A stretch of 32,209 bases of DNA. It comes from a virus (Duplodnaviria > Heunggongvirae > Uroviricota > Caudoviricetes). Made by a program: the position numbers and the translations under genes. The stretch's first letter is position 1. Each line of letters opens with the position of its first letter. Where the stretch lies: IMG/VR virus record IMGVR_UViG_2802429251_000009; one strand, given 5' to 3'. Below the pieces are notes generated by a model. The model saw only the letters and a program-made list of their open reading frames with translations. It had not been told where the DNA came from and ran no database searches. This document shows, one piece after another, positions 1-32,209 of the stretch.

Positions 1-318
1 ATGAAAAAGACAGCTGCTATATCATTAATTAGTGTTTTTCTTATGTCTGGTTGTGCTGTGCATAATGATGAGACAAGTATCGGTAAATTCGGTCTTGCCT
101 ATAAAAGTAATATCCAGCGTAAACTCGATAACCAATACTACACTGAAGCCGAAGCATCTTTAGCCAGGGGCAGAATATCTGGTGCAGAAAATATAGTGAA
201 AAATGATGCAGCTAATTTCTGTGTTACTCAGGGCAAAAAAATGCAGATAGTTAACCTGAAGACTGAAGGGGCAGGATTACATGGCGTCGCGCGTCTGACA
301 TTCAAATGTGGAGAGTGA
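1..318 (+). CDS. Small secreted lipoprotein, function unknown
   Basis: ATG start; N-terminal signal peptide MKKTAAISLISVFLMSGC with lipobox-like MSGC; AT-rich by eye, so probably island or flanking DNA rather than prophage core. Confidence 0.5.
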   Translation: MKKTAAISLISVFLMSGCAVHNDETSIGKFGLAYKSNIQRKLDNQYYTEAEASLARGRISGAENIVKNDAANFCVTQGKKMQIVNLKTEGAGLHGVARLTFKCGE

Positions 319-550
319 GAATAGATTCAAGACTACCATGGACACATCCATTTTTATCTCTGATAAGGTATTCTTCAACACCATTATTGAATGTGAGTAA
401 TAATGACAAGCAGATAGATGAAACTACAGCAGAATTTTTATTTTATGCGGCTATCAGAAAATGATGGCATAAATATTCCTATGCTTTAGCTTCATTTTTT
501 GTAAGCGTCAAACATGCGCGTTCTGGCTGTGCGTAGCCGGACCCTGTGCG

Positions 551-583
551 AGCACGATGCCGTTAAGTGAAAGGCATCGTGCT
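551..583. repeat. Perfect hairpin, 11-bp stem (agcacgatgcc / ggcatcgtgct) with 11-nt loop
   Basis: Read directly from the sequence; no flanking T-run on either strand, so not a classic intrinsic terminator. Confidence 0.5.
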
Positions 584-666
584 ATGAAGGGGAATTCTAT
601 CGATATGGTCAATGGAAGGAGGTAACCCGGTATGAATCCTTCCTTCTGTTTCATTGAATTACGCAT

Positions 667-772: not shown

Positions 773-1780
773 CTACCCTACTGTGGACACAGTGTGGACA
801 CTCATGGAGTCAACGCCACCACGTAGCGGATTGAGTGAAACAGCATCCTGAAGATACTCCGGGGCAAAGTGCGCATAGACCATTGTCTGCTCTATGCGTG
901 AATGTCCCAGTATTCTCTGCAGGGTGATGATACTCCCGCCGTTAATCATAAAGTGGGTAGCAAAACTGTGACGCAATGCGTGAGTTGCTTGCCCGTCCGG
1001 TAGATCTGGTTTTACATCTTTCATTGTTCGCCTGAACTTCGGATATGAGGCATCAGGGAACAGATAACCTTTACCCGCAATCATTACAGCAACTTCCTCA
1101 GAGATAGGGACTGTGCGCGGTTTGTTCGTCTTTGTTTTAACGAACGTCACCCGATTCTGTATTACGTTCTCAGCTTTCAGTTTCGCGGCTTCACCCCATC
1201 GAGCGCCGGTACTTAAACAGAGGATCGCGATTTTCTTGTTGTCCCCGTCAAGATTGGCAAGTAACAATGTTATTTCTTCCTGCGTCAGATAGCCTGTTTC
1301 TGGTTTCTGCTCCTTGAGCTTTTTCATCCCTCTGAAAGGGTGTTCGCCAAAAAACAGTTCCGCATCAATTAGCGCAGTAAACATACCACTCAGGCAGGTA
1401 AGGTCGCGGTTAATACTGGCCGGTTTTATGCCTTGCCCTCTGCGAGTCATGCTGTACTGGCTAATAAGCGCTTTGGTTATCTGGAACGCGCAAGGGTCAT
1501 CAGTGATCCGGGTAAAGATTTCAATCTTACCCAAATTGGATTTTCCGTGTTCTTCATGCTTGCCTTTCAGATCCCACCAGACTTTTGTTAATTCAGACAG
1601 ATGCCGCTTATCTGTCGGTTTAGCTAGCCATTCTTTATCGTGATGGTTGTATTGAGTGTGTTTCTCAAAAGCTACAGCCTCACTTTTCTTGTCAAATTTC
1701 CTGCGGATGCGCTTTCCGTTGCGCCCTGCAGGTCTGATATCCACTTCATAACGACCATCATCGAGTTTCTTAATTGTCAT
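773..1780 (-). CDS. int: Tyrosine recombinase, P2-type integrase
   Basis: 335 aa; C-terminal catalytic region HALRHSFATHFMINGGSIITLQRILGHSRIEQTMVYAHF (R..H-x-x-R...Y motifs); sits next to the att core and the C repressor. Confidence 0.9.
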   Translation of the reverse strand: MTIKKLDDGRYEVDIRPAGRNGKRIRRKFDKKSEAVAFEKHTQYNHHDKEWLAKPTDKRHLSELTKVWWDLKGKHEEHGKSNLGKIEIFTRITDDPCAFQITKALISQYSMTRRGQGIKPASINRDLTCLSGMFTALIDAELFFGEHPFRGMKKLKEQKPETGYLTQEEITLLLANLDGDNKKIAILCLSTGARWGEAAKLKAENVIQNRVTFVKTKTNKPRTVPISEEVAVMIAGKGYLFPDASYPKFRRTMKDVKPDLPDGQATHALRHSFATHFMINGGSIITLQRILGHSRIEQTMVYAHFAPEYLQDAVSLNPLRGGVDSMSVHTVSTVG

Positions 1781-1925: not shown

Positions 1926-2225
1926 TTAACCAATCTTTTGGTCTGAGTGCTGCGATGTTGTTACATCTTGCCCAAAGTGTGCGAGGGCCGGTGCTATCTG
2001 ACCGGCTTCGGGAGCAACCTGATCGGTCATAAACCACAACGTGTATTTGCTGAACTGGGGCATTTGCAAAATCCTCATCATTACGTCCGTGGGCGGTGTA
2101 GAACGACCACTTTCGTAATAACTTAAAGTGCCATAGGGAATGCCTGTTAAATCAGCAAGTTGCTGTCTGCTGAGATACTCAGACTTTCTGATGAGTACAA
2201 TTTTCTCGTTTAAGGCGTTTGACAT
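1926..2225 (-). CDS. C: Immunity repressor, P2 C-type
   Basis: 99 aa, the same length as P2 C and closely similar (EKIVL.RKSEYLSRQQLADLTG.PYGTLSYYESGRSTPPTDVMM); divergent from cox. Confidence 0.85.
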   Translation of the reverse strand: MSNALNEKIVLIRKSEYLSRQQLADLTGIPYGTLSYYESGRSTPPTDVMMRILQMPQFSKYTLWFMTDQVAPEAGQIAPALAHFGQDVTTSQHSDQKIG

Positions 2226-4306: not shown

Positions 4307-5272
4307 ATGATTCGATCTCTCGTTAAATGGCCCGGTGGTAAAGGCCGCGTTATGCCTGATTTGCTGCCGATTCTGCCGAAAGCCGATTGCCTGGTGGAAC
4401 CGTTTGTCGGCGGTGCTTCTGTTTTCCTCAATACTGAATATCGCCGTTATATCCTGGGTGATATCAACCCAGATTTAATTAACCTGTATCGCCAGATAAC
4501 CCGCTGGCCTGATGCGGTGATCGACGCTGCTCGCCCACTGTTTAAAGTGTACGGCGATAAAGACGGCTATAAGTGGATCCGCGATGATTTCAACGCCCGC
4601 GCCCGTGACCTACTGTCATTGCGCAGTGTGTTTGAAGATGGGCCGGACGCGGGCAAGATTCTTCGTGCAGCACAATTTCTTTACCTGAACCGTCACGGAT
4701 ATAACGGCGTAGTACGCTACAACCAACAGGGTGGATATAACGTTCCCTTTGGGCGTCACAAAACCCCGCCTTACTTCCCGGAAGAACAAATCCGTTTATT
4801 CTCTGAAAAAGCTAACGACACGAAAGCTATTTTCGTGTGCTGCGATTTCCAGAGCACGTTAAAAATCATGATTGGTAGTGACGCGGTTATCTATTGCGAT
4901 CCGCCATATCTGCCAACAAGCGAAACCGCTAATTTCACCCAATACCACACCGCCCCGTTTGGGATTAAAGAGCATCGCCAGTTAGCTGCCGCTCAGCTGG
5001 ATATTAACCGCCTTACTGGTTCGCCGGTGATCCTGTCTAATAGCGACACCCCAGCCACCCGCGAGATTTATCGCTCTTTCAACTTCCAGGAAATTATCGT
5101 TAACCGTTCTGTCAGCGCGAACGCCATTACCAGAGGGGCCGCCAGTGAAGTGATCGGCGTCCTCAAAGTCTGCGCGACTTGTCGCCGTGCCGGTGGTGGG
5201 TGCTGTCCTGACTGCGGCCCTTGTGCTGGTTATTCCGTGTGGGGTGGAGCGGCTGACGAGGTGCTCTTCTGA
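4307..5272 (+). CDS. dam: DNA adenine methyltransferase (Dam family, GATC-type) with a Cys/Gly-rich C-terminal extension
   Basis: N-terminal KWPGGK motif, catalytic DPPY motif and a C-terminal NRSVSAN region parallel E. coli Dam; about 40 extra C-terminal residues (CATCRRAGGGCCPDCGPC). Confidence 0.85.
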   Translation: MIRSLVKWPGGKGRVMPDLLPILPKADCLVEPFVGGASVFLNTEYRRYILGDINPDLINLYRQITRWPDAVIDAARPLFKVYGDKDGYKWIRDDFNARARDLLSLRSVFEDGPDAGKILRAAQFLYLNRHGYNGVVRYNQQGGYNVPFGRHKTPPYFPEEQIRLFSEKANDTKAIFVCCDFQSTLKIMIGSDAVIYCDPPYLPTSETANFTQYHTAPFGIKEHRQLAAAQLDINRLTGSPVILSNSDTPATREIYRSFNFQEIIVNRSVSANAITRGAASEVIGVLKVCATCRRAGGGCCPDCGPCAGYSVWGGAADEVLF

Positions 5273-5493
5273 TGGCTAGCAAAATTAATAACGGTCTTTC
5301 GGAATACCAGCGCGGCGCACTGGCTGCGCTTAACGAAGCCAAAACACTGGCCCTTGCACACGCAACGTTGGCGGGTGTTCTCGCCGGAAGTGAAGCCGCA
5401 AACACGCTGTTGATTTCTTTCAATGTGTTACTCGACCCGCTAATCGAAAAGCATTCCCAGCGGGAGGGTGATAGCGGGGCATCCAATGTCTGA
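5272..5493 (+). CDS. Small hypothetical protein (73 aa)
   Basis: ATG overlaps the dam stop (TGATG); Ala/Leu-rich; overlaps the gpA start. Coding status uncertain. Confidence 0.35.
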   Translation: MASKINNGLSEYQRGALAALNEAKTLALAHATLAGVLAGSEAANTLLISFNVLLDPLIEKHSQREGDSGASNV

Positions 5494-8101
5494 CACCGCT
5501 TTTGCATGGCCCTGGAACGCGCCGCGCCCAGCTATTGGCCTGTACACCTACGAACCGAAAAAAATCGCCCCGCTTGCAGGGGCGGTGGTACATCATCCAG
5601 CCGTAAAAAAACACATCGATCACATCTTCAAACGCGCCGGTTACAACCCCGACGAGGTTCGGGACCGTAACGCGCTTATCCAGGCGCTGGACAGGCACGA
5701 ACCGTGCGGCCTGCTACTGGCCGCCCATCAAAATATAATCCGGCAGGAAATGGAAGCCGCTAAAGCTACGACGGCAGCCTGGGTCAATACGCCGGAGGGT
5801 GTCGAAGCGCGTTTATTATCAGAGCCGTTCTTCATTCGTGAAGTCTGGCGTAAAAAAATTGAGTGGTTACGGGTCAACCGTGAAACCAGACACACCAATG
5901 ATTTTCTTATGGGGACCGTGAAAAAATCATTGCTGCGTCTTGATGTTGTACGCACAAGGCAAGGTGTTTCGCCTGATATCACCGGCGAACTGGCTGCGTA
6001 CTGGTTCGGGCGCTGGCAACGTCTGGCTGATTTCACAAAGCGGGAAGCACTGAGCGCCGCTAATGAGATCGCCAGCCGCATGGCTGAAATGCTGGGGACG
6101 GAATGCGAAGCCCTGGGACGGAATGTTTCAGACATGAACGTCGAAGAATTGGACTGGCTTTATTACCACCTGGGCCGCGAAATGCTGGCGCTTCGCATTG
6201 TACCGCCTGCATGGTATGCGCCGTGGGAACGCGAGCGCATATGCACGGCCATTTTGCGTATGGCTTCGCCTGACTGGTGGGGGCGTAAAATCTGGCGCTT
6301 GCGTTGTGACTGGCGCGAGAACCAGCTGCGTGCTGTTGGCGCGGTAAATAAAAAAGCGCACGCCTACGTTAGCGTTTCCAGCCTGATCGAGTGGCAGGAA
6401 CAGCGCCGTAAAAACCGGGATTTTTTCAAAAGTCATGAACTGGTAGACGAATACGGCAACGTTTCGTCGCTTGAGGAAATGATTAATAAATCCACGTCTA
6501 ACCCGGCTATTCGTCGCCATGAGCTTATGGCCCGAATGGCTGGGGTTGAGCTTGTCGCCCAAAGTCGCGGCGATGTTGGCATCTTCCTGACCATCACTTG
6601 CCCGTCGAAATATCACAGTAATATTGCGTCCGGCCACCATAACGCCAAATGGAATCATTCCACCGTCGCCCAGGCGCAGCGCTATTTATGCCGAGTATGG
6701 AACCGGGCAACCGCCAAACTGAAACGCGAAGATTTGCGCCCTTACGGCTTCCGCGTCGCTGAGCCGCATCATGATGGGACACCACACTGGCACGCATTGC
6801 TATTTATGCCACAAGAGCAAGTTAAAGCTACGGTTGCGATCCTTCGCGCCTACTTCATTGCGGAAGACCGCGACGAGCTGGGCCGCAATACCGGTGCTCG
6901 TTTCAAGTCAAAAAAAATGGACCCACGGAAAGGGTCAGCAACGGCGTATATCGCGAAATACATTTCGAAGAATATCGACGGCCACGCGCTGGCCGGTGAA
7001 CTGGACGACGAAAGCGGCAAGCCGCTGAATGAAACAGCCAAATATGCAATGGCCTGGGCGTCACTTCACCGCATCCGCCAGTTTCAGCCCATCGGACAGC
7101 CGCCCATATCGGTTTACCGCGAGCTGCGCAAACTGAGCAATCAGATCACGACCCGCCAGAAAATTGACAATACCTTCAAGCGCGGTGCGCCGTTGCTTGT
7201 GGATCCTGCAATGGATGCGGTTTGCGCCGCTGCCGATGTCGGGTGCTTTGCTACCTACATCATCCGCCAGGGGGGTGTTTTGATCCCGCGTGAAAACTAT
7301 GTCGTCCGTCTGGCCTATCAGCCAGCTGATGAAATGAATGCTTATTGTGAGATCCCCGAAAAGGTTTTCGGGGTCTGGTCGCCGCGTCTGGGTGATGCCT
7401 CCCGTATTAGCACCCGTCTGGTTAAATGGAAAATCCGCGCCAAATCCAAAGCCGCCACCGGGGCCAGAAACGGCCCCGGTTTGGGGGTTGACCTTTTGCC
7501 GTCGCCAACCGGCGGCGCTTGGAGTTCTGTCAATAACTCTACGGAAGACGAAAAAATCACCGATTTTTCGCTTGGTGTGGAGGGTATTACAGAAGAATCA
7601 GAAGAGGAAATCGTCGATTTTGAAAATATGGACCAGCCAACGCGGCGCAAATTGATGCGGCGACTACGTGAAACACCATTCAAAAGGCAGCAAAGCGGAT
7701 CACCTTATGAGCCAAGCAGCGAATTAGATGTCGCCTGGCGTTCTGCCGTGGAAAAAACCGAGGCCAGATCGGAGGCTGAAAAAGCCAGACGGGCGGCTCT
7801 TGCCCCTGCGATTGCCAGCCTGCTGGCTGATGCGACGTTGTATTCGGTTGAGATTTCAGAGATTCAGGCCGTTTCGCTGTTAATGGGGAGCCGTCTGGAG
7901 ATAGACGGCAAAGTTTATCAGGCCAGCGCTGACGGCCAGTTGATAACACGTCAATTACCCGATGATGCACGGACGATAAATAAATTATGGGAACGCCTGC
8001 GGGATAACCACGGCATTGATGCCACGCGCCTGCGCTTTGATCCGGTCGGGGAGTATCAAAAAATGCTGGCGGGTGTGGAAGGTCGTCTCCCAAAAGAATG
8101 A
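5486..8101 (+). CDS. Replication initiation endonuclease, P2 gpA-like (rolling-circle HUH nuclease)
   Basis: About 870 aa; HUH-type motif HHDGTPHWHALLF and catalytic tyrosine region TAYIAKYISKNIDG. The ORF track starts at GTG 5468; the first ATG is 5486. Start is ambiguous. Confidence 0.85.
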   Translation: MSDTAFAWPWNAPRPAIGLYTYEPKKIAPLAGAVVHHPAVKKHIDHIFKRAGYNPDEVRDRNALIQALDRHEPCGLLLAAHQNIIRQEMEAAKATTAAWVNTPEGVEARLLSEPFFIREVWRKKIEWLRVNRETRHTNDFLMGTVKKSLLRLDVVRTRQGVSPDITGELAAYWFGRWQRLADFTKREALSAANEIASRMAEMLGTECEALGRNVSDMNVEELDWLYYHLGREMLALRIVPPAWYAPWERERICTAILRMASPDWWGRKIWRLRCDWRENQLRAVGAVNKKAHAYVSVSSLIEWQEQRRKNRDFFKSHELVDEYGNVSSLEEMINKSTSNPAIRRHELMARMAGVELVAQSRGDVGIFLTITCPSKYHSNIASGHHNAKWNHSTVAQAQRYLCRVWNRATAKLKREDLRPYGFRVAEPHHDGTPHWHALLFMPQEQVKATVAILRAYFIAEDRDELGRNTGARFKSKKMDPRKGSATAYIAKYISKNIDGHALAGELDDESGKPLNETAKYAMAWASLHRIRQFQPIGQPPISVYRELRKLSNQITTRQKIDNTFKRGAPLLVDPAMDAVCAAADVGCFATYIIRQGGVLIPRENYVVRLAYQPADEMNAYCEIPEKVFGVWSPRLGDASRISTRLVKWKIRAKSKAATGARNGPGLGVDLLPSPTGGAWSSVNNSTEDEKITDFSLGVEGITEESEEEIVDFENMDQPTRRKLMRRLRETPFKRQQSGSPYEPSSELDVAWRSAVEKTEARSEAEKARRAALAPAIASLLADATLYSVEISEIQAVSLLMGSRLEIDGKVYQASADGQLITRQLPDDARTINKLWERLRDNHGIDATRLRFDPVGEYQKMLAGVEGRLPKE

Positions 8102-8323: not shown

Positions 8324-9373
8324 ATGGTTGATATAGAAGAAGTTATTACTAAGAAAAGAAATTCATTAAAGGCCGATCGTTTAGATATGTCTTTTGGTGA
8401 ATTGATGAATATGTTTGAAGACGGAGATTTATTCATCACTCCTGAATATCAAAGGGCATTTCGTTGGTCTAATTTTCAACAAACAAGATTTATTGAGTCT
8501 GTTTTATTGGGAATACCGATCCCCCCGATTTTTGTAGCAGAAGATGATAAGGGAAAATGGGAGGTTGTTGATGGCTTACAGCGTATATCAACAATTTTTT
8601 CATTTTTTGGTGTTCTTACTAATCTCCCAGAAAAAAACAACCTGAAACTATGCAAAGGAGAAATGGTTGCCGAGTTAGAAAATATAACTATTGATGCTCT
8701 TCCAATCAGATTAAAAACAACCATTAAAAGAGCAGTTTGTAGAGTTGAGATTGTTCGCTGGGATAGTAACGAAGATATTAGGTATGAACTATTTAATCGA
8801 CTGAATACAGGGGCTAGCCCGTTATCTGATCAAGAGATAAGAAACTGTATTTTTAGATCATACCCTGTTGATTTAAATAAAATATTGCGTGAAATTGCAG
8901 TTATGCCAAATTTCATTGAGTTGATTAACCCTTCAGCAGCTAAAAAAGAAGAAATGTTTTTAGAGGAGTTAGTGCTTCGCTATTTTGCTTTTAAACATTT
9001 TGATGGTGATTTTAATACTACTGTTCCTAATTTCCTTTCAGACTTCATGCGCTCCGTGTCGAAAGGTGACATTGCTTTTGATTTAGATTGTGAAAAAAAA
9101 TCATTTGTTGAGTTAATTGATTTCTTAATATCTCATGGCGGCAAGGAGTTATTTAGACCTAATGGACCTTTTGCCTTACATCTTTTTGATTCTATATCAT
9201 ACGCTTTGCCAAAAGTATTCGATACTGTCATTGGTAATGAGCAAAAAATTACAGAAGCTATAAATACATTGCTTACTGACGAAAAATATCAAAGTATTAG
9301 CGTGCTCACATTCTCAACTGCACGTACTCGTAATCGGATGGATCGAGCTTTAGAGATTTTCAAAAGTGCATAG
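8324..9373 (+). CDS. DUF262 (ParB/GmrS-N-like) domain protein without an HNH/DUF1524 domain; candidate defence-system component
   Basis: N-terminal signature ITPEYQRAFRWSNFQQTRFIESVLLGIPIPPIF...KWEVVDGLQRISTI; GGAG SD 7 nt upstream; strongly AT-rich; no H-N-H motif seen in the C-terminal half. Confidence 0.75.
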   Translation: MVDIEEVITKKRNSLKADRLDMSFGELMNMFEDGDLFITPEYQRAFRWSNFQQTRFIESVLLGIPIPPIFVAEDDKGKWEVVDGLQRISTIFSFFGVLTNLPEKNNLKLCKGEMVAELENITIDALPIRLKTTIKRAVCRVEIVRWDSNEDIRYELFNRLNTGASPLSDQEIRNCIFRSYPVDLNKILREIAVMPNFIELINPSAAKKEEMFLEELVLRYFAFKHFDGDFNTTVPNFLSDFMRSVSKGDIAFDLDCEKKSFVELIDFLISHGGKELFRPNGPFALHLFDSISYALPKVFDTVIGNEQKITEAINTLLTDEKYQSISVLTFSTARTRNRMDRALEIFKSA

Positions 9374-9986
9374 TTTAGTGGCTGAAATTTATGAAACAAA
9401 CTCCTGGCGAGATGGGGAGTTTGCTAAATTTAGAGTCAACCCCCATCAAGTAGACCCTGTTTTATGGGGGCGGATGTGTGTACCGATGATTTATGCAAAC
9501 TGGGAGGGTTTTGTAGTTAGTTCATTAAAAATGCTTTTAAAGCATTTAAATAAATTAGAACTAACCCCATTACAAATACCTACTAGATTAGTTGTAGTTG
9601 GATTAGGTGACACATATAGAAGTTTAAGTGGGAAGCAATCATTTGAACAACGATGTGAGTTCACTGATAAATTTAATGAGTTATTAAAAAAAACCGTTAA
9701 ATTTAAGACAAAAATTGAAACTAAATCGAATTTGCATAGTGGTGTATTGAAAGAACTATGTCAAATGTTTGCTTTTGATTTTGAAAGATTTAGTGACGTA
9801 ACTGTTACTCTAGATCGTCTTGTTCAAGTGAGAAACTGTATTGCACATGGAGAAAACTCGATTTTACCAACTCAGGAAAATATTGAGTTATACATCGATG
9901 CAGTGAAAGCAGCAATTGATATCATGTTAGAAGAAATTGACTTGTTTTTAACGCAAGAAAGTTATTTATATAAACAGCAAGCCTAA
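9366..9986 (+). CDS. Small protein with HEPN-like Rx4H motif (RNCIAHGE); candidate effector partner of the DUF262 protein
   Basis: GTG start overlaps the upstream stop by 8 nt (coupled); alternative in-frame ATG at 9474. The motif assignment is by eye only. Confidence 0.5.
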   Translation: MHSLVAEIYETNSWRDGEFAKFRVNPHQVDPVLWGRMCVPMIYANWEGFVVSSLKMLLKHLNKLELTPLQIPTRLVVVGLGDTYRSLSGKQSFEQRCEFTDKFNELLKKTVKFKTKIETKSNLHSGVLKELCQMFAFDFERFSDVTVTLDRLVQVRNCIAHGENSILPTQENIELYIDAVKAAIDIMLEEIDLFLTQESYLYKQQA

Positions 9987-10021
9987 AATAAATACTCCGC
10001 CTTAAAGGCGGAGTATTTATT
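9987..10021. terminator. Bidirectional intrinsic terminator, perfect 15-bp stem with 5-nt loop
   Basis: aataaatactccgcc-ttaaa-ggcggagtatttatt read directly; sits between the convergent cargo operon (+) and the zinc-finger/portal operon (-). Confidence 0.65.
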
Positions 10022-10334
10022 GTTGAAGTAATTCCAATGCTATCTGGCGTTCTTCCGGCTTGAGTCGATCAATTAGAAATTTAACCAGCTTGTTGCCGGT
10101 CAGTCCGCTGGGGCTTAGGGTATGTGAAAACTGGGCGTTAAAAACAAAGGTGTGGCCGCATTCAACTTCCGTGCAGGCGCAGTATAAATCAGCCAGTTTT
10201 TTGTCTTTCCAGTCAGATTTACGAATGATGGCCGGTGAGCCGCATTCAGGACATTTAATTTTAAAAACTCGCATGTTCACCATCCCGCACGCCATTGCTA
10301 ACAATGGGGATGATTTTAACTTAACTGCGCTCAT
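10017..10334 (-). CDS. Ogr/Delta-family zinc-finger protein (late-gene activator type)
   Basis: C-x2-C-x22-C-x4-C arrangement with CPECGS...Y.CACTEVECGHTF, resembling P2 Ogr and P4 Delta; start overlaps the portal stop (ATGA). An internal ATG (MRVFKIKCPECG) is an alternative start. Confidence 0.6.
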   Translation of the reverse strand: MSAVKLKSSPLLAMACGMVNMRVFKIKCPECGSPAIIRKSDWKDKKLADLYCACTEVECGHTFVFNAQFSHTLSPSGLTGNKLVKFLIDRLKPEERQIALELLQQ

Positions 10335-11392
10335 TTTTCGCCCTTTTCGGTGGTGATTGCCGGGATATCTACATCAAAATGCAGGTGCAAATGTGGGGGG
10401 ATCTCCGGGTCATTGTTGACGCCGTTCATTAGCTTGCGCTGCAACGGGATAACTTCATCCTTGCGATAGGTTGTGCGGGCGGTTTCAGGGTTGCCCATTA
10501 CCGCGCCATTGGTCGGGATGATACCTGCCAGCCCTGCGGGGAAACGGTGAGCGGTAAAGATATCCTGCGCGGTGATCCCTTTGATGTTGGCAAATTCATC
10601 CTTTGCGCTGACTTCGCCCACAGGCATGATTTTAACCCCTTCCGGGTCGCCCTTCGGGATGTTGATAAACATATTGCGGAAGTTACCCAGCCCTTTGGAC
10701 TGGGCGATCTTCTCTTTGATTTCGTTTTCCATTTCCAGCGTCAGATTCGGATCGCTGGTATAGAGAATAAAGCCCATATGCGCCCCGTTATTGTAGTAAC
10801 GGCGCCGGAAGATGGTTGCCTCACTGTTGAGTAACACCGAATGGATGCCGCCGATATAGTCAGGCAGGCCATATACCTGCTGGCGCGGGTCGTACATTTT
10901 AAAGAAAACGATGTCTTCCGGGTCATAGATAAGCGCTGGCCCTTCCTGCAGAACGGCAAACGAGCCGTCTTTCCGGCAGCGCAGATACAACGACGGCAGC
11001 GGCAGCAGGTCGATCACTTCCCCGAATACGTTACGAATTTTCAGGATAGCGATGTCACCAAACAGCAGGTAATCAAAGACAGCCTGTTCGACCTGGTCAG
11101 GTGTCAGGCCGCCGCCAATATAGCCACCGGCCACCATATTGCGCCGCGCATACAGCACCCCACCATGCTGGCCGTTAAGGTTCGGCAACTGGGCCAGCGC
11201 CAGGCGATCAATCGGGAGTCGCCAGTGGTCATATTCATTGTCATACCAGATATTGTGATAATCCGTGCCGGTCGTCAGGATGGGTTCGGGTTCGCCAAAT
11301 GTGATCACGCTTCCGCGCCCTGGCGTGAAGGTTTCAACCTTGCTGCCGGTCATGGACCTGAATTTTTTATTTTTACGCTGTTTCTTTGTCAT
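10331..11392 (-). CDS. Portal protein, P2 gpQ-like
   Basis: 353 aa; position and orientation as in P2; 4-nt overlap with the terminase gene. Confidence 0.9.
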   Translation of the reverse strand: MTKKQRKNKKFRSMTGSKVETFTPGRGSVITFGEPEPILTTGTDYHNIWYDNEYDHWRLPIDRLALAQLPNLNGQHGGVLYARRNMVAGGYIGGGLTPDQVEQAVFDYLLFGDIAILKIRNVFGEVIDLLPLPSLYLRCRKDGSFAVLQEGPALIYDPEDIVFFKMYDPRQQVYGLPDYIGGIHSVLLNSEATIFRRRYYNNGAHMGFILYTSDPNLTLEMENEIKEKIAQSKGLGNFRNMFINIPKGDPEGVKIMPVGEVSAKDEFANIKGITAQDIFTAHRFPAGLAGIIPTNGAVMGNPETARTTYRKDEVIPLQRKLMNGVNNDPEIPPHLHLHFDVDIPAITTEKGEK

Positions 11393-13200
11393 GCTGCTTT
11401 CCCAAAGTACCAGCCCGATGGGCGGTCATATTCGTGATCGATAGGTTCGTTAATTACGGCGTGCGAGATAGCGAAGAAAACATCTGCATGGCCGGTCGCG
11501 TCTGAACGTTCGGCAACAAACGTCAGCGCGTTGCCGCTGTTGGTTGTCGTGCGCCGGATAGCCATAAAGCTGGCCGGAATTTCGACGCGCTCCTTGTTCG
11601 TTTCGTCTACGGCGTCTTTTGCCCATTCGATGCGCTTACGCTCGACAACGTCGATCATCTTCATCACCAGGCGGTTTTTGCTTTCGACGCTGTAAAGAAT
11701 GGGTGTGGCTTCGCGTGGCGCAAATTTGCTGACCAGGTCATAAACGCCTTTACCTATGCCGGTTGTATCGATCCCGATGTAAGTGATGTTAAAGCGGCGC
11801 ATAAGCTGCTTTATCTGGTCGGCCTGCCAGCTGAAGTTAAAACCCTGCCATTGCCAGACGGCCAGCACGCGGAAGCGCTCGCCGTCCTCTATAGGGGGCG
11901 CGATTAACACAAATGTTGAGTTGTCGCCGGAGCGCGACGGGTCAAAACCTGCCCATACTTCGCGATTGCCGAAGGGCCGCGCAGCAGTCAGATCAAAGTC
12001 GCCCCATGTGGCCCGGTCCACTTCACAGCCAACAAGCGCGGAGAACTTGAAAACCGCGTCTTTACTGTCAACAAACTGGCACATGTAGAGCATGGCGAAC
12101 GCGGTCGGGCTGTATTTGTTGCGAAGCCGTTCAATATCGACAAGCGCACCGAGGCCACCTTCGATAGCGTCTTCCATCGTGATGATGTAGCGCCAGATCT
12201 GGTCCGGGCAGAGAATGCCCTGGCGCATTTCGCTTTCTGTCGGGAACGCCACACCTTTGCGTTTCGGGTCGTCACCGCGCCAGGCTTCGCCAGTCCAGAC
12301 CGGGTAAGCCTGGTGCGTTTTCGCGCTGGGCGTCGAAAAGTAGGTCGTGCGGTATTTGTTATGCGTTGCCATTGCACTGGCAACTTCATGCAGGCGCGTG
12401 AATTTCGGGATCCAGAAAACCTCATCGCCATACAGGTGGCCGTTAAAGCCCTGTGCGGTGCTGGCGTTCGTGGACAAAAAGCGCAGTATTGCGCCGTTAC
12501 TGAGGCGGATATTTTTACCCGTCAGCGTCACGCCGAAATGGTTCTGGGCGATCTGGACGATGTATTCGCGGAAGATTTCCGACTGGGATCGGCTTGCAGA
12601 GAAAAAGACCTGGTTATCACCGGTAATGACGGCGTCTTCAAATGCTTCCCAGGCGAAATAATAGGTCATACCCACCTGGCGGCTTTTCAGAATGAAGCGC
12701 CAGTCTTCGCCTTTATGTTCGCGGCAGTGCAGCTGGTACTCGAAGAGATGTTCCCGCGCCCAGGTGTCGAGCATTTCCGCTGTAATACCGGAAACGTCGT
12801 TTTTCTTATACCGGCGCTTTCTTTCCCTTGGTTCCCCGCCTGCGCTGCTGAGGCAGTACCCTTCACCATCATAAGCCGCTTTCTGGGCCTGAATTTCTGC
12901 CAGCTTTTCGGCGTGCTTGTTGCGCTGCGCCATGAGTTTCACATGGTGAGCAATCAGATCGCGCAGTTCTTCCAGTTCCAGCGCCGTTTTTTTCTCGCGG
13001 CGGGAGAGCTGGTCGATACGGCGGGCGATGACATTTTCCACCGATTCAACAGGCAGCAGTGATGCCCACTTCCCGACGTCAGCCCAGTGGTAAATTGTAC
13101 GCGGTGGAATATTCAGTTCCTGCGCAATATCTTTCGGCGTCCAGCTTTTTATATAAAGCGTGCGGACCGCTTCTTTTAATTCATCGGAATATTTAGCCAT
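11389..13200 (-). CDS. Terminase large (ATPase) subunit, P2 gpP-like
   Basis: 603 aa; first gene of the leftward late operon, followed by the portal gene as in P2. Confidence 0.9.
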   Translation of the reverse strand: MAKYSDELKEAVRTLYIKSWTPKDIAQELNIPPRTIYHWADVGKWASLLPVESVENVIARRIDQLSRREKKTALELEELRDLIAHHVKLMAQRNKHAEKLAEIQAQKAAYDGEGYCLSSAGGEPRERKRRYKKNDVSGITAEMLDTWAREHLFEYQLHCREHKGEDWRFILKSRQVGMTYYFAWEAFEDAVITGDNQVFFSASRSQSEIFREYIVQIAQNHFGVTLTGKNIRLSNGAILRFLSTNASTAQGFNGHLYGDEVFWIPKFTRLHEVASAMATHNKYRTTYFSTPSAKTHQAYPVWTGEAWRGDDPKRKGVAFPTESEMRQGILCPDQIWRYIITMEDAIEGGLGALVDIERLRNKYSPTAFAMLYMCQFVDSKDAVFKFSALVGCEVDRATWGDFDLTAARPFGNREVWAGFDPSRSGDNSTFVLIAPPIEDGERFRVLAVWQWQGFNFSWQADQIKQLMRRFNITYIGIDTTGIGKGVYDLVSKFAPREATPILYSVESKNRLVMKMIDVVERKRIEWAKDAVDETNKERVEIPASFMAIRRTTTNSGNALTFVAERSDATGHADVFFAISHAVINEPIDHEYDRPSGWYFGKAA

Positions 13201-15492: not shown

Positions 15493-16194
15493 ATGGCTAT
15501 GACCCCGTGTCAGCGACACCGAGCACGCATTAAAGCCGCAAAGGCGCTGGATAAGTGCGAAGCCCTGACGGCATCGCCGGTCAGCTTTCACATTCAAATG
15601 CTGGAACTGGAAAAGGATGTTGAACGGCTTCGCAATCTGACACGCGCTGACCGTATGGACATGAAGCGCGATGTTCTTTTGCCGCGCTGGATGCCAACCG
15701 TTGAAGCATACCTTTCCGGTGATGCCCGCTTTGCCAATCCGGCCCTGGTTTACTGCGTGATCTGGCTGTTCGATACGGGGGAAATGGGCAAGGCGCTGGA
15801 CTGGGCTGATGTGGCTATCAGTGAGAGCCAGGCCACGCCGGAAAACTTCAATAGCAACCTGCCTGCCTTTGTGGCCGACACGGTGCTGGAGTGGGCGATC
15901 ATGCAGGCGGAAGCCGGTCACAGCATCGAGCCCTATTTCAGCCGCACCTTTGAAAACATCCGCGAAAAGTGGCGTTTGCACGAAGACATTAACGCGAAGT
16001 GGTTCAAGTTCGCCGGTCTTTACCTGCTGCGCGACGAGAAGGGGCAGCCGCGAGTCACTGCCGTGGATGATGTGAACACGCTGGAGCAGGCCGACGCCCT
16101 TTTGGCCCAGGCGGCGGCGTACAACAAAAACGCCGGAGTTAAGACCATGCGCGAAAAAATCCGTGCCCGGATTAACGGCCTGACCCAGCTTTAA
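15493..16194 (+). CDS. Terminase small (endonuclease) subunit, P2 gpM-like
   Basis: 233 aa; position directly after the capsid gene as in P2. Confidence 0.75.
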   Translation: MAMTPCQRHRARIKAAKALDKCEALTASPVSFHIQMLELEKDVERLRNLTRADRMDMKRDVLLPRWMPTVEAYLSGDARFANPALVYCVIWLFDTGEMGKALDWADVAISESQATPENFNSNLPAFVADTVLEWAIMQAEAGHSIEPYFSRTFENIREKWRLHEDINAKWFKFAGLYLLRDEKGQPRVTAVDDVNTLEQADALLAQAAAYNKNAGVKTMREKIRARINGLTQL

Positions 16195-27703: not shown

Positions 27704-28415
27704 TTCAATTATAAGGATTGCCGATGATATGTCGGCATTATCCTGTTCAATCATTCCGGCCCATCCGTGGGTGTATGGGCTGGGTCAGTCCACGGATTCA
27801 GGCGCTTATCTTAGTCCGGCCAATGCGATGGGATATCTTGCTAAAAAGCTGTTATCCGGTGGCGGTAGCGGCGATGTTATCGTCATGATGGTAGCGGAGA
27901 ATACCCACGACGCATTTATGCAGGGGCTGAATAAACTGTCCACCGTATTTCCTGCCCCCGTTTTTACGCAGGTAAGCCGCATGGCGGCAGCCGCCGCAGA
28001 ACTCAGCACGGTAAAAATGCAGTTGCCGGTTAAAGCCGATGTATTGCCAGCCAGTGCGCCGTTATCAGTCTCAACCAACCGGCTGGCGCTGAATGCCCGG
28101 CGTGTTGCCGCCGCGCAGCTGGCCGCCGCAGTCAGTACCACCACAACAGATCTAAAAAACCAGGTGACGGGATTTATTCAGGAACGGGCCGGTTTGCTGT
28201 CCTCACTCAGCCAGGGACTGGACGACCTGAAAGCCGCCAGTGCGAATATTTTTTCATTCAGTTACAGCGGGAGTTATGCCGTTGCTGCCGCTGAATTGCT
28301 GAAAGGCATCCCGCAAACAACGGCAGTGCATACCGCCGCGATGATGTTTATCGGGGATTCGTTATCTGACTTAGGGAGGATGCTACATGAGCCAGACCGC
28401 ATTACTCGCGCTTGA
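27693..28415 (+). CDS. Hypothetical tail-associated protein
   Basis: Start uncertain (ORF track 27645; in-frame ATGs at 27693 and 27729); phage-like GC; Ala-rich. No recognisable motif. Confidence 0.35.
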   Translation: MWRDSIIRIADDMSALSCSIIPAHPWVYGLGQSTDSGAYLSPANAMGYLAKKLLSGGGSGDVIVMMVAENTHDAFMQGLNKLSTVFPAPVFTQVSRMAAAAAELSTVKMQLPVKADVLPASAPLSVSTNRLALNARRVAAAQLAAAVSTTTTDLKNQVTGFIQERAGLLSSLSQGLDDLKAASANIFSFSYSGSYAVAAAELLKGIPQTTAVHTAAMMFIGDSLSDLGRMLHEPDRITRA

Positions 28416-28929
28416 TGGTGAAGGGATCGCCATGCAGAACATGCTGGTTTCACCTTCCATGCAGTTTCAGGAGAAGGACCAGTCGGGCCAGACATCGAGC
28501 ACGGCCAATGCTGAACAGGGTATCAAGGCCAAAGAGCTGCGCGTGTCGGGTCTGGTGACATTCGACGATGAAGCCGTTTTACAGCGGCTTTTTCAGCTGG
28601 CATCCGCAACCGAAGCCAGCGGAGCACTGAAAAAGTACCGTGTTGCCAATGCGACGGCAACGGCTATCAACCTTCGTGAAGCCACGTTCACCGGTCAGAT
28701 TGATGCCGTACCGCAGGAGGATCGCCTTGCCTGGCAGGTAAGTTTCACCCTGCGTGAAAAAGGCAGCGTCCCGGAAAAACGACAGGCCAGAAAAGGCAAC
28801 GCGACGGCCACCACCAGGCAAACAGGGGCAAAGGGCGCGGGTCCGGCTGCCGGTGCTGATGAACCAGCCGACAAAATGAGCTGGTTTGAAGAAAAGGTCT
28901 TAAAGCCGGTCAACGATGCGCTGGGGTAA
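28387..28929 (+). CDS. Hypothetical tail protein (possibly gpU-like by size and position)
   Basis: 180 aa; GGGAGG SD upstream of the ATG; precedes the hub/spike gene. Assignment is by synteny only. Confidence 0.35.
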   Translation: MSQTALLALDGEGIAMQNMLVSPSMQFQEKDQSGQTSSTANAEQGIKAKELRVSGLVTFDDEAVLQRLFQLASATEASGALKKYRVANATATAINLREATFTGQIDAVPQEDRLAWQVSFTLREKGSVPEKRQARKGNATATTRQTGAKGAGPAAGADEPADKMSWFEEKVLKPVNDALG

Positions 28930-28936
28930 TTAAACG

Positions 28937-30661
28937 ATGAAACCAATTAAACGCCTGTACCTTTCCTCTGATCCGGTCCATCTGATTGACTGCAATATCG
29001 TGCTGGAGCTGAACGCGTGCGGTCGGGGGTTTATTACGGCGGGGACAGAGACAGATTACACCGGCAAAATGGTGCGTATCGATGTTGGTTATGATGGTCT
29101 GGTCCTGCGCTGGTTTACCGGATACGTCGAACGGTCACAGCCTGCTGATAATGGAACATGCCGGTTGTTCGTGCGTGAGCTGGTCGGCATCTTTGATAAA
29201 TTGTGGCCGTGTTCTTTCCAGCATCCAACGTTGCGCCAGATTACTGACTGGATAAGTGAGCAAAGCGGGCTGACCGTCACAACGCCGGTCGGCGCTGCTT
29301 ATGCAGATAAACCGATCCCCCACTTTACGCACAGCGGCACGGGCTACCAGCTTTTTGCCAGTCTGGGCCGAGCATTTTCAGTGACGGATTATCTTTGGTA
29401 TCAGCTGCCGGACGGGGATGTCTTCGTCGGTGCTGCTGAGCACAGTCTTTTTGCGGGTAAACCAGTAGAGATCCCGCACGAATTTAGCCAGGCATCGGCG
29501 GGCGGCAATTCAATGGTTGTGCCGATGATTCAGAGCCTGCGCCCGGGTGCTGAGGTGAACGGCCAGCGGTTAAACCAGGTCCGGCTAAATAACGACGACA
29601 TGACAATCACCTGGCAGCCATGCAACAAAGCCAACGGCCAGCCATTGCAAAAATCACCCATTCAGCGGCAGATTGAAAACGCATTCCCGGAGCTGGCAAG
29701 CGGCCTGCATCTTCCAAAATTCGCCAGGGTGGAAGCGCCAAGCGAGGATGTTTCAGGGGGTAATATTGCCGATCCATTCCGCCCGCGCTATGCCGTGGAT
29801 CTCCAGCTGCTTGACGAATACGGCAAGCCAGCCGCAAATACGCCGGTTTATTCTGCCGTTCCGCTACCTGTACCAATGGCGGGCAGCGAGTCGGGAATGT
29901 TCCAGTTTCCGCCCCCTGGCACGCTGGTTGAAATCGGGTTCACTGAGGGGCGGCAGGATAAGCCCTTCGTGCGCCAGATTATGGCGGAGGGTCATAACCT
30001 GCCAGCGGTTAAACCCGGCGAGCAGTTGCAGCAACAGCGCGATGGTGTATCGCAGCGCGTGACGGTTGCCGGAGACTGGGAACGCCAGACGGACCAGACA
30101 ATCCGCGAAAACTCCATGATGCGCGAAGTCACCACCGACGAAGAGATCCGCAAAGTGGTTGTCCGTGAAACTACGGTCCAGGCAACGGATAAAACAACCG
30201 TGCTTGGCACGGCCACTCTTCTGGCCGGGGCGGTGGTCCATATCAGCGAGGGTGATTACAGTATCGGCACATCCGGCAACCTGACAGTAACCTGCAGCAA
30301 GGACAATTCCGTCAGTGTTGGCCGGAACGCAAAACGGGACGTCGCGGGCGATGTTACAGACGACGTGAAAGGGAATGTCACGTCAAACGTCAGCGGCGCA
30401 CTGACTGAGAAAATCAGCGGTATCCGCCGAAGTGTGGCCCAGGCGCAACAGCTGATTGCCCCGGTGGTAAAACTGGGAAGCGAAGAGATTAACGTCCTGA
30501 CACTACTCACCGACACCCTGGACGTGGTGAGGGAACTGGCAGAGACTGCCGCGTCACATACTCACCCCAACACAGGGGCCAGCGGGCAGGCTGCGCAGTT
30601 CAGCGCAACGGCCACTAAAACCGGTACATTGAAAAGCAAATACGGTCCCCTGATAGCCTGA
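28937..30661 (+). CDS. Putative baseplate hub / central spike protein (gpD-gpV-like, VgrG-like fusion)
   Basis: 574 aa; C-terminal third has repetitive V/T/D/G-rich beta-helix-like segments and an HTHPNTG (H-x-H) motif near the end, as at spike apexes; last gene of the tail cluster. Confidence 0.45.
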   Translation: MKPIKRLYLSSDPVHLIDCNIVLELNACGRGFITAGTETDYTGKMVRIDVGYDGLVLRWFTGYVERSQPADNGTCRLFVRELVGIFDKLWPCSFQHPTLRQITDWISEQSGLTVTTPVGAAYADKPIPHFTHSGTGYQLFASLGRAFSVTDYLWYQLPDGDVFVGAAEHSLFAGKPVEIPHEFSQASAGGNSMVVPMIQSLRPGAEVNGQRLNQVRLNNDDMTITWQPCNKANGQPLQKSPIQRQIENAFPELASGLHLPKFARVEAPSEDVSGGNIADPFRPRYAVDLQLLDEYGKPAANTPVYSAVPLPVPMAGSESGMFQFPPPGTLVEIGFTEGRQDKPFVRQIMAEGHNLPAVKPGEQLQQQRDGVSQRVTVAGDWERQTDQTIRENSMMREVTTDEEIRKVVVRETTVQATDKTTVLGTATLLAGAVVHISEGDYSIGTSGNLTVTCSKDNSVSVGRNAKRDVAGDVTDDVKGNVTSNVSGALTEKISGIRRSVAQAQQLIAPVVKLGSEEINVLTLLTDTLDVVRELAETAASHTHPNTGASGQAAQFSATATKTGTLKSKYGPLIA

Positions 30662-30854
30662 CAAAAACGGCATTACCGCACACCTCACCAGACACCACAG
30701 AACGCGCCACAGCAGGCGCAAATATTAAAGGTCGCCACCGTGCGGCCTTTCTTTCGTTTGTTCAACAGCGGCCCACAGCGTAAGCGACAGCAGGCAGACG
30801 GAAGCGGATCCAAGACGGAAACGGCGCTACACCGCACCCGCCTGCGCAGTTTGG

Positions 30855-30966
30855 ATCATAAAAATTTTGCAAAAGAAATTTTGTGCAAAGCACCCCGCCA
30901 GCCTGCGCCGCTGCTGGGCTTTTGCATCCTGCGGGCGTTTGCACTCTGCGCAAAGATTTGCAGCAC
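30855..30966. repeat. Cluster of TTTGCA-containing motifs, including the 10-bp palindrome TTTTGCAAAA
   Basis: TTTGCA at ~30856, 30911, 30928, 30948 and 30958, plus GCAAAG variants at ~30871 and 30938; a third palindrome copy at ~31144-31153. Read directly. Confidence 0.5.
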
Positions 30967-31243
30967 TTTGCAAAAGTCACCGCGTCGCCAGTCGCTAACC
31001 GACTGGATAACATGATGTTTTTAAAAGGATCGTTTTAGTTTCCGTGACGATCAAAATGATTCGGTTGTATCCGATGGTTTTCGGGGGCGGATATTGTGAA
31101 GCCTTGTGCGGCGCGGGCTGGCGGCTAGTTTGCTTTTATTTGGGTTTTGCAAAATGATGCACGAAGTTTTGATAAAAGGATCTCTAGCTAAGGGGGAGGG
31201 AACGTATAAAAACCCCCGCCCTCTGGGTGATATTTTGTTCTAT

Positions 31244-32209
31244 TTATAGAAGTTTACTTACTGAAATCAGTTTGGGAGATTTAATGCCAATCTCACATAA
31301 TGTTGTATGATGTGCTTCACGCTCAGTTTCCTGATAATAGGTGGCTATCCATTCCGTATTTTTACTAACAATGCTATGTATAAAAGAAAAGTAGGGAACA
31401 TCTACAGATGATAACGAATGGCCGATGATGATGATTTCGTCTACGTTACTGAGATTTTTAAAAAATTTAGCGCTGTCAGCAATGACTTTTTCAGTATTCT
31501 TAAAAGAAGAAGTGAAGTATTTATTAATAGTCTGCTTTCCCATTTCATAAGAGTGATCGTAATTATCAGCCATCCACTGACGCCACTCTTCAAGTTCTTC
31601 ATCGGTTGCATTTTCGGGCGGGACTGCTTCCTTTTCTTCAAAGTTGATAGGGTCAATACCATGACCTAAAATCAACTGTTGATCTGATGATGCTTTCCCA
31701 TGAATATATAAAATTTGTCTATCATCAATACTATAATATTTCTGAAGAGTGTCAGTGTAATTAAAACTGATAAAGATAGAATCAGAATCGATACGCAATC
31801 TTTTTTTTAAATTAAGTTCGGGGTAGTTAACCTGCAATATAAATGACTTGAATTGTGTTAAAAGTCCCTCGGTTAAATTTTCTAGTATACGTTCCATTTC
31901 AATGGATAATGAGTTCCAGTCCCTGTCACGAAAATCGGGGCTGCTAATTTGGGGTAAAAGATAGCTAAACTCTTCGAGCACCGACTCTGTATCCAGACCC
32001 GCTAAGCTGTTTTCGAAATCAGACCAAAGAGAATGTTTTGACTTATCAACTGCGGAAAGAGAAGGGGGTAAGTCAGTAAATCCCATAAACTCAACCAAGT
32101 GATCGTAAATGTCTCGATCTTTCTTCCGAAGATAATCCCCAAATGAGAAATAGCTCGTGTCAAGTTCGTGATGCAGATCAAACCCATTCCCGATGATGTA
32201 TAGCTTCAT
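31244..32209 (-). CDS. AbiH-like abortive-infection family protein (candidate)
   Basis: N-terminus MKLYIIGNGFDLHHELDTSY matches the IIGNGFD motif I associate with the AbiH family; strongly AT-rich; ATG is the last codon position of the window, so the promoter lies outside. Confidence 0.5.
   Translation of the reverse strand: MKLYIIGNGFDLHHELDTSYFSFGDYLRKKDRDIYDHLVEFMGFTDLPPSLSAVDKSKHSLWSDFENSLAGLDTESVLEEFSYLLPQISSPDFRDRDWNSLSIEMERILENLTEGLLTQFKSFILQVNYPELNLKKRLRIDSDSIFISFNYTDTLQKYYSIDDRQILYIHGKASSDQQLILGHGIDPINFEEKEAVPPENATDEELEEWRQWMADNYDHSYEMGKQTINKYFTSSFKNTEKVIADSAKFFKNLSNVDEIIIIGHSLSSVDVPYFSFIHSIVSKNTEWIATYYQETEREAHHTTLCEIGIKSPKLISVSKLL

Follow-up and report, generated by a model that had tools for sequence, protein, structure and literature searches.

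The 582-bp gap at positions 30662-31243 of the window, the 32,209-nucleotide stretch of viral DNA analyzed here, is probably the cos region of an HP1/P2-type (Peduoviridae) prophage, and the TTTGCA boxes within it are proposed to be docking sites for the packaging enzyme. The gap is thus most likely an ordinary though little-described feature, namely cos, where viral DNA is cut and recognized for packaging. It is enclosed by two convergent genes; the spike/baseplate ORF stops at 30661, the minus-strand AbiH ORF has its end at 31244, and a preliminary description of this DNA had placed these limits correctly. Almost the entire window represented one P2/HP1-type (Peduoviridae) prophage with the following layout.

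667-688: attL core
773-1780, minus strand: int
1926-2225, minus strand: C repressor gene
2342-2617: cox
4307-5272: Dam-like (D12-class) methyltransferase gene
5468-8101: gpA gene (Pfam Phage_GPA)
8324-9986: GmrSD-N and HEPN cargo
10017-10334, minus strand: Ogr/Delta zinc-finger gene
10331-11392, minus strand: portal gene
11389-13200, minus strand: large terminase gene, gpP
Thereafter, in this order: scaffold, capsid, small terminase gpM (15493-16194), gpL, and tail genes
28387-28929: HP1-ORF34-like gene
28937-30661: spike/baseplate gene, 574 aa
31244-32209, minus strand: AbiH gene (Pfam AbiH, E 8e-62)

The 22-bp att core AAAAAATAAGCCCGTGTAAGGG at 667-688, beside int, recurred at attR, where it overlapped the 3' end of cyaR. 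In E. coli FDAARGOS_1059, attR (L002, 7778-7866) overlapped the gene for the CyaR sRNA (Rfam, 100.7 bits) at its 3' end, and the same gap and AbiH gene, followed by cyaR and yegQ, were present in nineteen E. coli genomes. Because the att core recurs at cyaR, the prophage is integrated at cyaR/yegQ, and window positions 1-666 are host flank. Because the core recurs past AbiH, this gene belongs to the prophage as cargo, and attR is located shortly after the end of the window.

Several features of the element were recorded alongside. The abortive-infection gene AbiH (31157-32209) had a low G+C content of ~36% and sat in a variable cargo slot directly behind the last conserved cos element; the same slot held a 68-aa ORF in SI7 and other ORFs in prophages of Enterobacter, Erwinia, and Rahnella. 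A second cargo pair, located between gpA and the ogr-like gene (8324-9986), encoded one protein with a GmrSD N-terminal domain and one HEPN protein of the RiboL-PSP/MAE_28990 type; the two probably form a defence module. Three TTTAGA(T) repeats, unlike the motif of the gap, were found in the C-cox intergenic region (2226-2341) and are presumably the immunity operators. In the related Yersinia phage 324 (L012, ~6851-6870) and in the left arm of ESSI-2, perfect LexA-box-like palindromes (CTGT-N8-ACAG) stood upstream of small ORFs and may mark SOS-controlled antirepressor genes.

The position of the gap in the gene order pointed to HP1-type phages. The spike protein was 41% identical to orf35 of Haemophilus phage HP1 (E 3e-156). 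No gene follows orf35 in the HP1 record, where its stop is 192 bp before the right end; the record opens with cosL, which is annotated, and attP (251-694) and int come next. A tblastn search of a phage collection showed that the orf35-type homologue stops 167-221 bp short of the linear record's end in HP1, HP2, K139, F108, phiO18P, VcP032, 919TP, and VPUSM 8; in ESSI-2 (a Cronobacter phage) and the Escherichia phages ev239, ev015, and ev129, it is reversed and lies ~200-310 bp from where the record starts. In the window, 166 bp separated the stop codon of the spike gene from the conserved core described below. HP1-type cos sites adjoin attP (Lavigne et al. 2009, PMC2771037), and the gap occupies this very slot between the last tail/baseplate gene and attP-int. 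Over 30600-31156, the window was 92% identical to Salmonella phages SI7, SW3, and SW5, in which a small ORF, the repeats of the attP arm (TGTGGAC), and int come after the homologous stretch. The same element also encodes a cognate P2-type terminase. The gpP gene (11389-13200, minus strand) matched Pfam Terminase_6N, Terminase_6C, and Terminase_5 (matches spanning 11392-13200), with the HTH-like Terminase_5 domain at the N terminus of the protein, and gpM (15493-16194) matched Phage_term_smal (match spanning 15493-16191).

Three other placements were considered and rejected. A cos site at the P2 position was ruled out; the ogr-like gene abuts the portal gene there, and the P2 cohesive-end 19-mer GGCGAGGCGGGGAAAGCAC had no match at ≤3 mismatches in the window. 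Nor does the gap have the makeup of an attP arm, in which Int/Cox sites adjoin the crossover core: the arm-type repeats of Int are TGTGGAC and stand beside the 22-bp core at 667-688, separated from the gap by the AbiH gene. A replication origin with iterons was discarded because the replication protein is of the P2 gpA type (Pfam Phage_GPA), and in P2 this protein nicks an origin within its own gene.

The cut site was located by the ends of relatives' records. In five virion-derived records (ESSI-2, SW5, ev015, ev129, and ev239), the record ends fell within the equivalents of window positions 30827-30841. They are given here with coordinates oriented like the window.

ESSI-2: right end ...GGCACTACACCGCACCCGC; left end CTACACCGCACCCGCCTGCAAG...
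SW5: right end ...GGCGCTACACCGC (30835); left end GCACCCGCC... (30834)
ev015: right end ...GGCGCTAC (30830), then Nextera adaptor; left end GCACCCGCC... (30834)
ev129: right end ...GGCGCTAC (30830), then Nextera adaptor; left end adaptor, then CGCCTGC... (30839)
ev239: right end ...CTACACCGCACC (~30838), then a chimeric tail-fibre fragment; left end adaptor, then GCCCCCGCCTGC...

The two ends of the linear ESSI-2 record bore the same 15 nt as a direct repeat, with the sequence of window 30827-30841. The assemblies of SI7 and SW3 run through the site, and each is missing exactly CTACACC (30827-30833), a 7-nt gap in the cos core that is probably an assembly scar. Nextera libraries and Ray assembly underlie at least the SW5, SI7, and SW3 records (PMC6783827). 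Transposase (Nextera) libraries lose the very ends of the DNA (PMC5557969), which explains why the breakpoints are ragged yet tightly clustered. Chance alone would have a negligible probability of bringing the breaks or scars of seven records, from three laboratories, into one 15-bp stretch of a 30-kb genome, and cosN is therefore placed at 30827-30841.

The records suggest an overhang of 7 to 15 nt, the exact end positions differing from one record to another; it would measure 7 nt if it resembles that of HP1 and 15 nt if the ESSI-2 repeat is the guide. HP1 reportedly has an overhang of 7 nt, and its record annotates cos as 1-9. The record boundary of K139 lay ~20 nt further right than the ESSI-2-like breaks, between T and C of GGATCA, and its core sequence was homologous. 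RefSeq entries ESSI2_ev239, ev129, and ev015 (NC_049392, NC_049394, and NC_049395) retain Nextera adaptor at their ends, and in the ev239 entry the chimeric tail-fibre fragment is joined after the true right end. Among the 80 listed metagenome matches (of ~120), none coincided with the end of a contig, which is what cellular metagenomes would be expected to give. One metagenome contig (L124) contained two cos cores (2456 and 8886) 6.4 kb apart next to rpoD. The idea that it is a satellite was abandoned in favor of tandem degraded prophage remnants (truncated int, CI, CII, and a sheath fragment).

Relatives for comparison were collected with the 26-nt pattern GGAAACGGCNCTACACCGCACCCGCC (30817-30842), which was found in 69 viral contigs; a second, right-side pattern gave matches in more than 120 metagenome contigs. 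Seventy sequences were compared and fell into clade A (n = 38, including the window) and clade B (n = 32). The elements of the region are listed below, with offsets counted from the cut.

30727-30760, plus strand: Rho-independent terminator of the late tail operon, 3' of the spike gene (terminator scan; 9-bp stem and T-run)
30797-30824, plus strand: direct repeats GACGGAAGCGG (30797-30807) and GACGGAAACGG (30814-30824), GACGGAA(G/A)CGG, on the right-end side of the cut
30827-30841, no strand: cosN CTACACCGCACCCGC, probable staggered terminase cut site (cohesive end), from the termini of relatives
30853-30857, no strand: GGATC
30865-30889: A/T-rich block with the palindrome TTTTGCAAAA (30865-30874, +39) and TTTTGTGCAAA (30879-30889, +53)
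30897-30919: G+C-rich dyad GCCAGCC-N9-GCTGGGC; CCAG/CTGG arms (nearly) invariant in 26 relatives, centre variable
30921-30975 (+95 to +149): TTTGCA array, proposed as cosB-like terminase recognition boxes; TTTGCA at 30921, TTTGCAC at 30938, GCGCAAAG at 30948-30955, TTTGCAG at 30957, CTTTGCAAAA at 30966-30975
31027-31052 (+201 to +226): GGATC (31027-31031), inverted ACGGAA copy TTTCCGTGAC (31039-31048), and GATC (31049-31052)
31054-31099: spacer of ~45 bp, variable in sequence (high column entropy) and fixed in length
31145-31154 (+319): distal palindrome TTTTGCAAAA, the last conserved element; TTTGCAA invariant in the 26-sequence alignment
31157-31243: 3' flank of the AbiH cargo gene, outside cos, with an imperfect G/C hairpin inside

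The core at 30811-30845 (35 bp) was invariant in 26 diverse clade A relatives, whose flanks were down to ~50% identity; this invariance is partly by construction, because 26 bp of the 35 (30817-30842) are the fetch pattern itself. The stretch from 30845 to 31156 measured 312-316 bp in all 26 relatives. Homology with SI7 and other relatives stopped at ~31156, with lineage-specific cargo beyond, and 31157-31243 had no homology to SI7 and most relatives and was common only to E. coli prophages with the same AbiH. The terminator hairpin was kept with changes on both arms (GGTCGCC..GCGGCC versus GGCCGAC..TCGGCC in relatives), and HP1 and K139 have a terminator at the equivalent place. ACGGAA occurred at -11 in 70/70 sequences, but this position is inside the fetch pattern; the copy at -28 was present in 29 of the 38 clade A sequences. 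In the same clade, GATC was found at +28 in 35/38, at +202 in 32/38, and at +223 in 33/38, and TTCCG at +214 in 29/38. GATC/GGATC sites in the cos region of the window start at 30806, 30853, 31027, 31049, and 31178, and those at -19, +28, +202, and +223 were positionally conserved in 25-35 of the 38 sequences.

The boxes themselves were strongly enriched. TTTGCA occurred six times in the gap (30866, 30921, 30938, 30957, 30967, and 31146) and TGCAAA four times (30868, 30884, 30969, and 31148). This total of 10 hexamers compared with 1.25 ± 1.14 expected from dinucleotide shuffles and was reached in 0 of 2000 of them; the densest 150-bp stretch of hexamers in the whole 32-kb window also lay within the gap. 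The earlier count of at least five TTTGCA copies in ~110 bp was borne out, with five within 107 bp. Three copies of one palindrome had been claimed as well. Two are exact copies of TTTTGCAAAA (30865 and 31145); the third is CTTTGCAAAA at 30966, which is not exact, and the positions originally assigned to the palindromes in the array were ~10 bp off.

Right of the cut, TTTGCA/TGCAAA boxes stood at fixed offsets of +40, +112, +122 (as the variant CGCAAA), +131, +141, and +320. The same array was recovered from related prophages, with boxes at conserved positions in the 38 clade A sequences: TTTGCA at +40, +112, +131, and +141, the +40 box being present in 37/38. Clade B, which includes Yersinia phage 324 and ESSI-2, had TTTCA(G)/TGAAA at +41, +114, +123, +132, and +142 instead, with TTTCA at +41 in 31/32; the ev phages bear the same motif. 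The cut-site core was identical in both clades. Several short motifs at fixed spacing thus lie beside the nicking site, and they change together with the lineage while the nicking site stays constant, as in a cosB-like array.

Both clades have hosts among the Enterobacteriaceae, E. coli included, and because of this a single host protein is unlikely to be the reader of the boxes. The motif switch suggests, as the simplest account, a phage-encoded sequence-specific protein of changed specificity. By analogy with lambda cosB, this protein would most plausibly be the terminase, with two obvious candidates, gpM and the HTH-like Terminase_5 domain at the N terminus of gpP. Between the window and Yersinia phage 324, the HTH-like domain of gpP stood at ~49% against 59% for the whole protein (counted by hand), a difference that is not discriminating; the divergence of this domain between the clades is only a hint to the box reader.

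The switch also bears on the possibility that a nucleoid protein of the host (IHF, Fis, or HU type) binds the boxes, or that the region is under Dam/SeqA control, and that terminase reads the invariant core only. Lambda cosB requires IHF, an A/T-rich block lies beside the cut, conserved GATC sites stand at -19, +28, +202, and +223, and the phage encodes a Dam-like methyltransferase, all of which would fit such an arrangement. The replacement of TTTGCA by TTTCA(G) between clades that share their enterobacterial hosts argues against it, however, and no clear IHF consensus was seen by eye. We regard this explanation as improbable.

To the same low degree we credit an operator function, in which the boxes would bind the C repressor, Cox, the Ogr-like activator, or another phage factor and drive a promoter into the cargo or the tail operon. 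Short dyad-symmetric repeats are typical of operators, and the last box (31145) is just upstream of the variable cargo slot. However, the promoter scan returned no sigma-70-like promoter in 30662-31243, the C/Cox intergenic region (2226-2341) has TTTAGAT repeats and no TTTGCA, and the array is conserved whichever cargo follows and in either orientation. Moreover, the offsets of the boxes are fixed to the cos core and not to any gene. The preliminary description had interpreted the boxes as binding sites for a regulator. Its notion of multiple protein sites agrees well with motifs that are enriched, positionally conserved, and replaced in concert in the sister clade; the setting, in contrast, is most likely cos and not a transcriptional operator, as the TTTAGAT repeats at C/Cox and the absence of promoter-like sites indicate.

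A structured non-coding RNA, which had been offered as the other explanation, was not supported. Such a small RNA would lie between the hairpins at 30727-30750 and 31113-31133, and indeed two terminator-like hairpins on the plus strand bracket a conserved, non-coding block. No Rfam covariance model matched anywhere in the window at the gathering threshold, and the tRNA/tmRNA scan found none. RNAalifold, applied to the plus strand of 26 relatives, found no covariation-supported helices; the covariation term was 0.03 kcal/mol, and only 1 of 27 pairs was compensatory, most others being invariant motif copies that pair with each other. A promoter was absent from the gap, the second hairpin (31113-31133) was not conserved, and conservation took the form of short blocks at fixed spacing, like DNA sites. 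A small RNA is therefore very improbable.

Least credible of all is a small protein gene such as gp25 of SI7 (54 aa, in the frame of window ORF 30740-31015), although a CDS is annotated there in the GenBank and RefSeq records of SI7, SW3, and SW5: column entropy in 26 relatives was 0.70/0.73/0.74 at codon positions 1/2/3, without the third-position excess of the adjacent spike gene (0.61/0.61/1.28), stop-free runs of ~50 codons occurred in all six frames, the internal ORFs begin with GTG or TTG, confirming the non-ATG starts noted earlier, and the virion DNA of relatives is cut 10-24 bp upstream of the CDS start annotated in SI7 (~30851). The gap thus had neither the codon-position pattern nor the conserved ORF of a protein-coding gene. 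Because three-base periodicity was missing and stop-free runs filled six frames, the CDS of SI7, SW3, and SW5 is probably spurious. This 54-aa "hypothetical protein" (L001, 4246-4410; L004, 240-404; L005, 18-182) overlaps the box array of cos.

Taking the gap as cos, we propose the following course of events. During lytic growth, terminase (gpP plus gpM) would cut concatemeric DNA inside CTACACCGCACCCGC (30827-30841), and staggered nicks there would produce the cohesive ends of the virion chromosome. The right end would then carry the spike gene, the terminator, and the GACGGAA repeats, and the left end would open with the TTTGCA array, followed by cargo, attP, and int. For this, terminase would dock to the left-end side, at the TTTGCA boxes, and would then package from the cut, in a direction that we infer; the boxes would form a cosB-like element comparable to the R sites of lambda. 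The ACGGAA repeats, the A/T-rich block, and the GATC sites could help to build or regulate the complex, and the upstream ACGGAA repeats together with the inverted copy may act in end recognition or looping. At ~320 bp, the conserved stretch exceeds lambda cosB in length, so that some of it may have a different role. A bolder version, which we consider rather unlikely, is that the block of fixed length is an extended "packasome" scaffold, that the concerted box switch creates packaging exclusivity between co-resident HP1-like prophages, and that the GATC sites together with the Dam-like phage methylase might couple cutting to methylation as in P1 pac. The dependence of cutting on methylation is pure speculation.

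The cos sites of HP1-type phages and their location beside attP are already known. Among the records examined of Irrigatiovirus, Seongnamvirus, Evevirus, Quadragintavirus, and Tresduoquattuorvirus, none carried a cos annotation here, and our literature search found no description of the cos of ESSI-2, SI7, or Yersinia phage 324; the box array and the clade switch seem to be undescribed. An unexplained motif array is thereby turned into a testable annotation, the probable packaging site of widespread enterobacterial HP1/ESSI-2-like prophages, over which some database records place a spurious small ORF and directly behind which an AbiH defence gene occupies the cargo slot. Knowledge of cosN sets the genome start coordinates for these phages and, together with the putative boxes, helps to spot satellites or plasmids that they could mobilize. 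DNA recognition by P2-type terminases is poorly understood compared with that of lambda, and the TTTGCA and TTTCAG lineages with the same cut site provide a natural pair for studying it.

The closest likeness was to the HP1-type phages HP1, HP2, K139, F108, and phiO18P. They share with the window the slot after an orf35-type gene and terminator and before attP/int, a similar distance from the gene to the end (166 bp here and 167-221 bp there), and P2-type gpP and gpM terminase genes. Like the ACGGAA(A) repeats found here, three copies of CACGGAAA lie left of the cut in HP1, and CACGGAAT lies on the same side in K139; both phages share the layout ACGGAA...CTACACC...CCCGCC with the window. HP1 also has an inverted ACGGAA-type copy (TTTTCCGTGTG / TTTTCCGTG) at +222 from its left end, with a counterpart here, ~210-225 bp into the left end, and A/T-rich repeats of the TTTCAA/TTTCAG type in the first ~150 bp of the left end, where the window has TTTGCA. 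The differences are the cohesive end, TCCTTCC... in HP1 and CTACACCGCACCCGC here, and the ~1 kb of AbiH cargo between cos and attP.

P2, 186, and P4 have the same gpP/gpM terminase family (Pfam Terminase_5/6N/6C and Phage_term_smal) and a G+C-rich cohesive-end region, but P2 cos adjoins the portal gene Q, a position that the ogr-like gene fills here. With P1 pac, the site has in common conserved GATC flanking the cleavage site and a phage-encoded Dam-like methyltransferase. P1, however, packages by the headful and has seven TGATCA/G hexamers near the cut, whereas four or five GGATC are scattered here.

In lambda, gpNu1 binds the R sites beside cosN. Homology to lambda terminase is absent here at both the sequence and the protein level, the conserved region is, at ~320 bp, longer than in lambda, and ~17 kb separate cos from the terminase genes. 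The arrangement is nevertheless the same, a nicking site with several short repeats at fixed spacing on the side that is packaged first. Lambda and phage 21 share cosN and differ in cosB and in gpNu1/terminase specificity; likewise, clades A and B are two lineages that share the nicking site and differ in the repeats.
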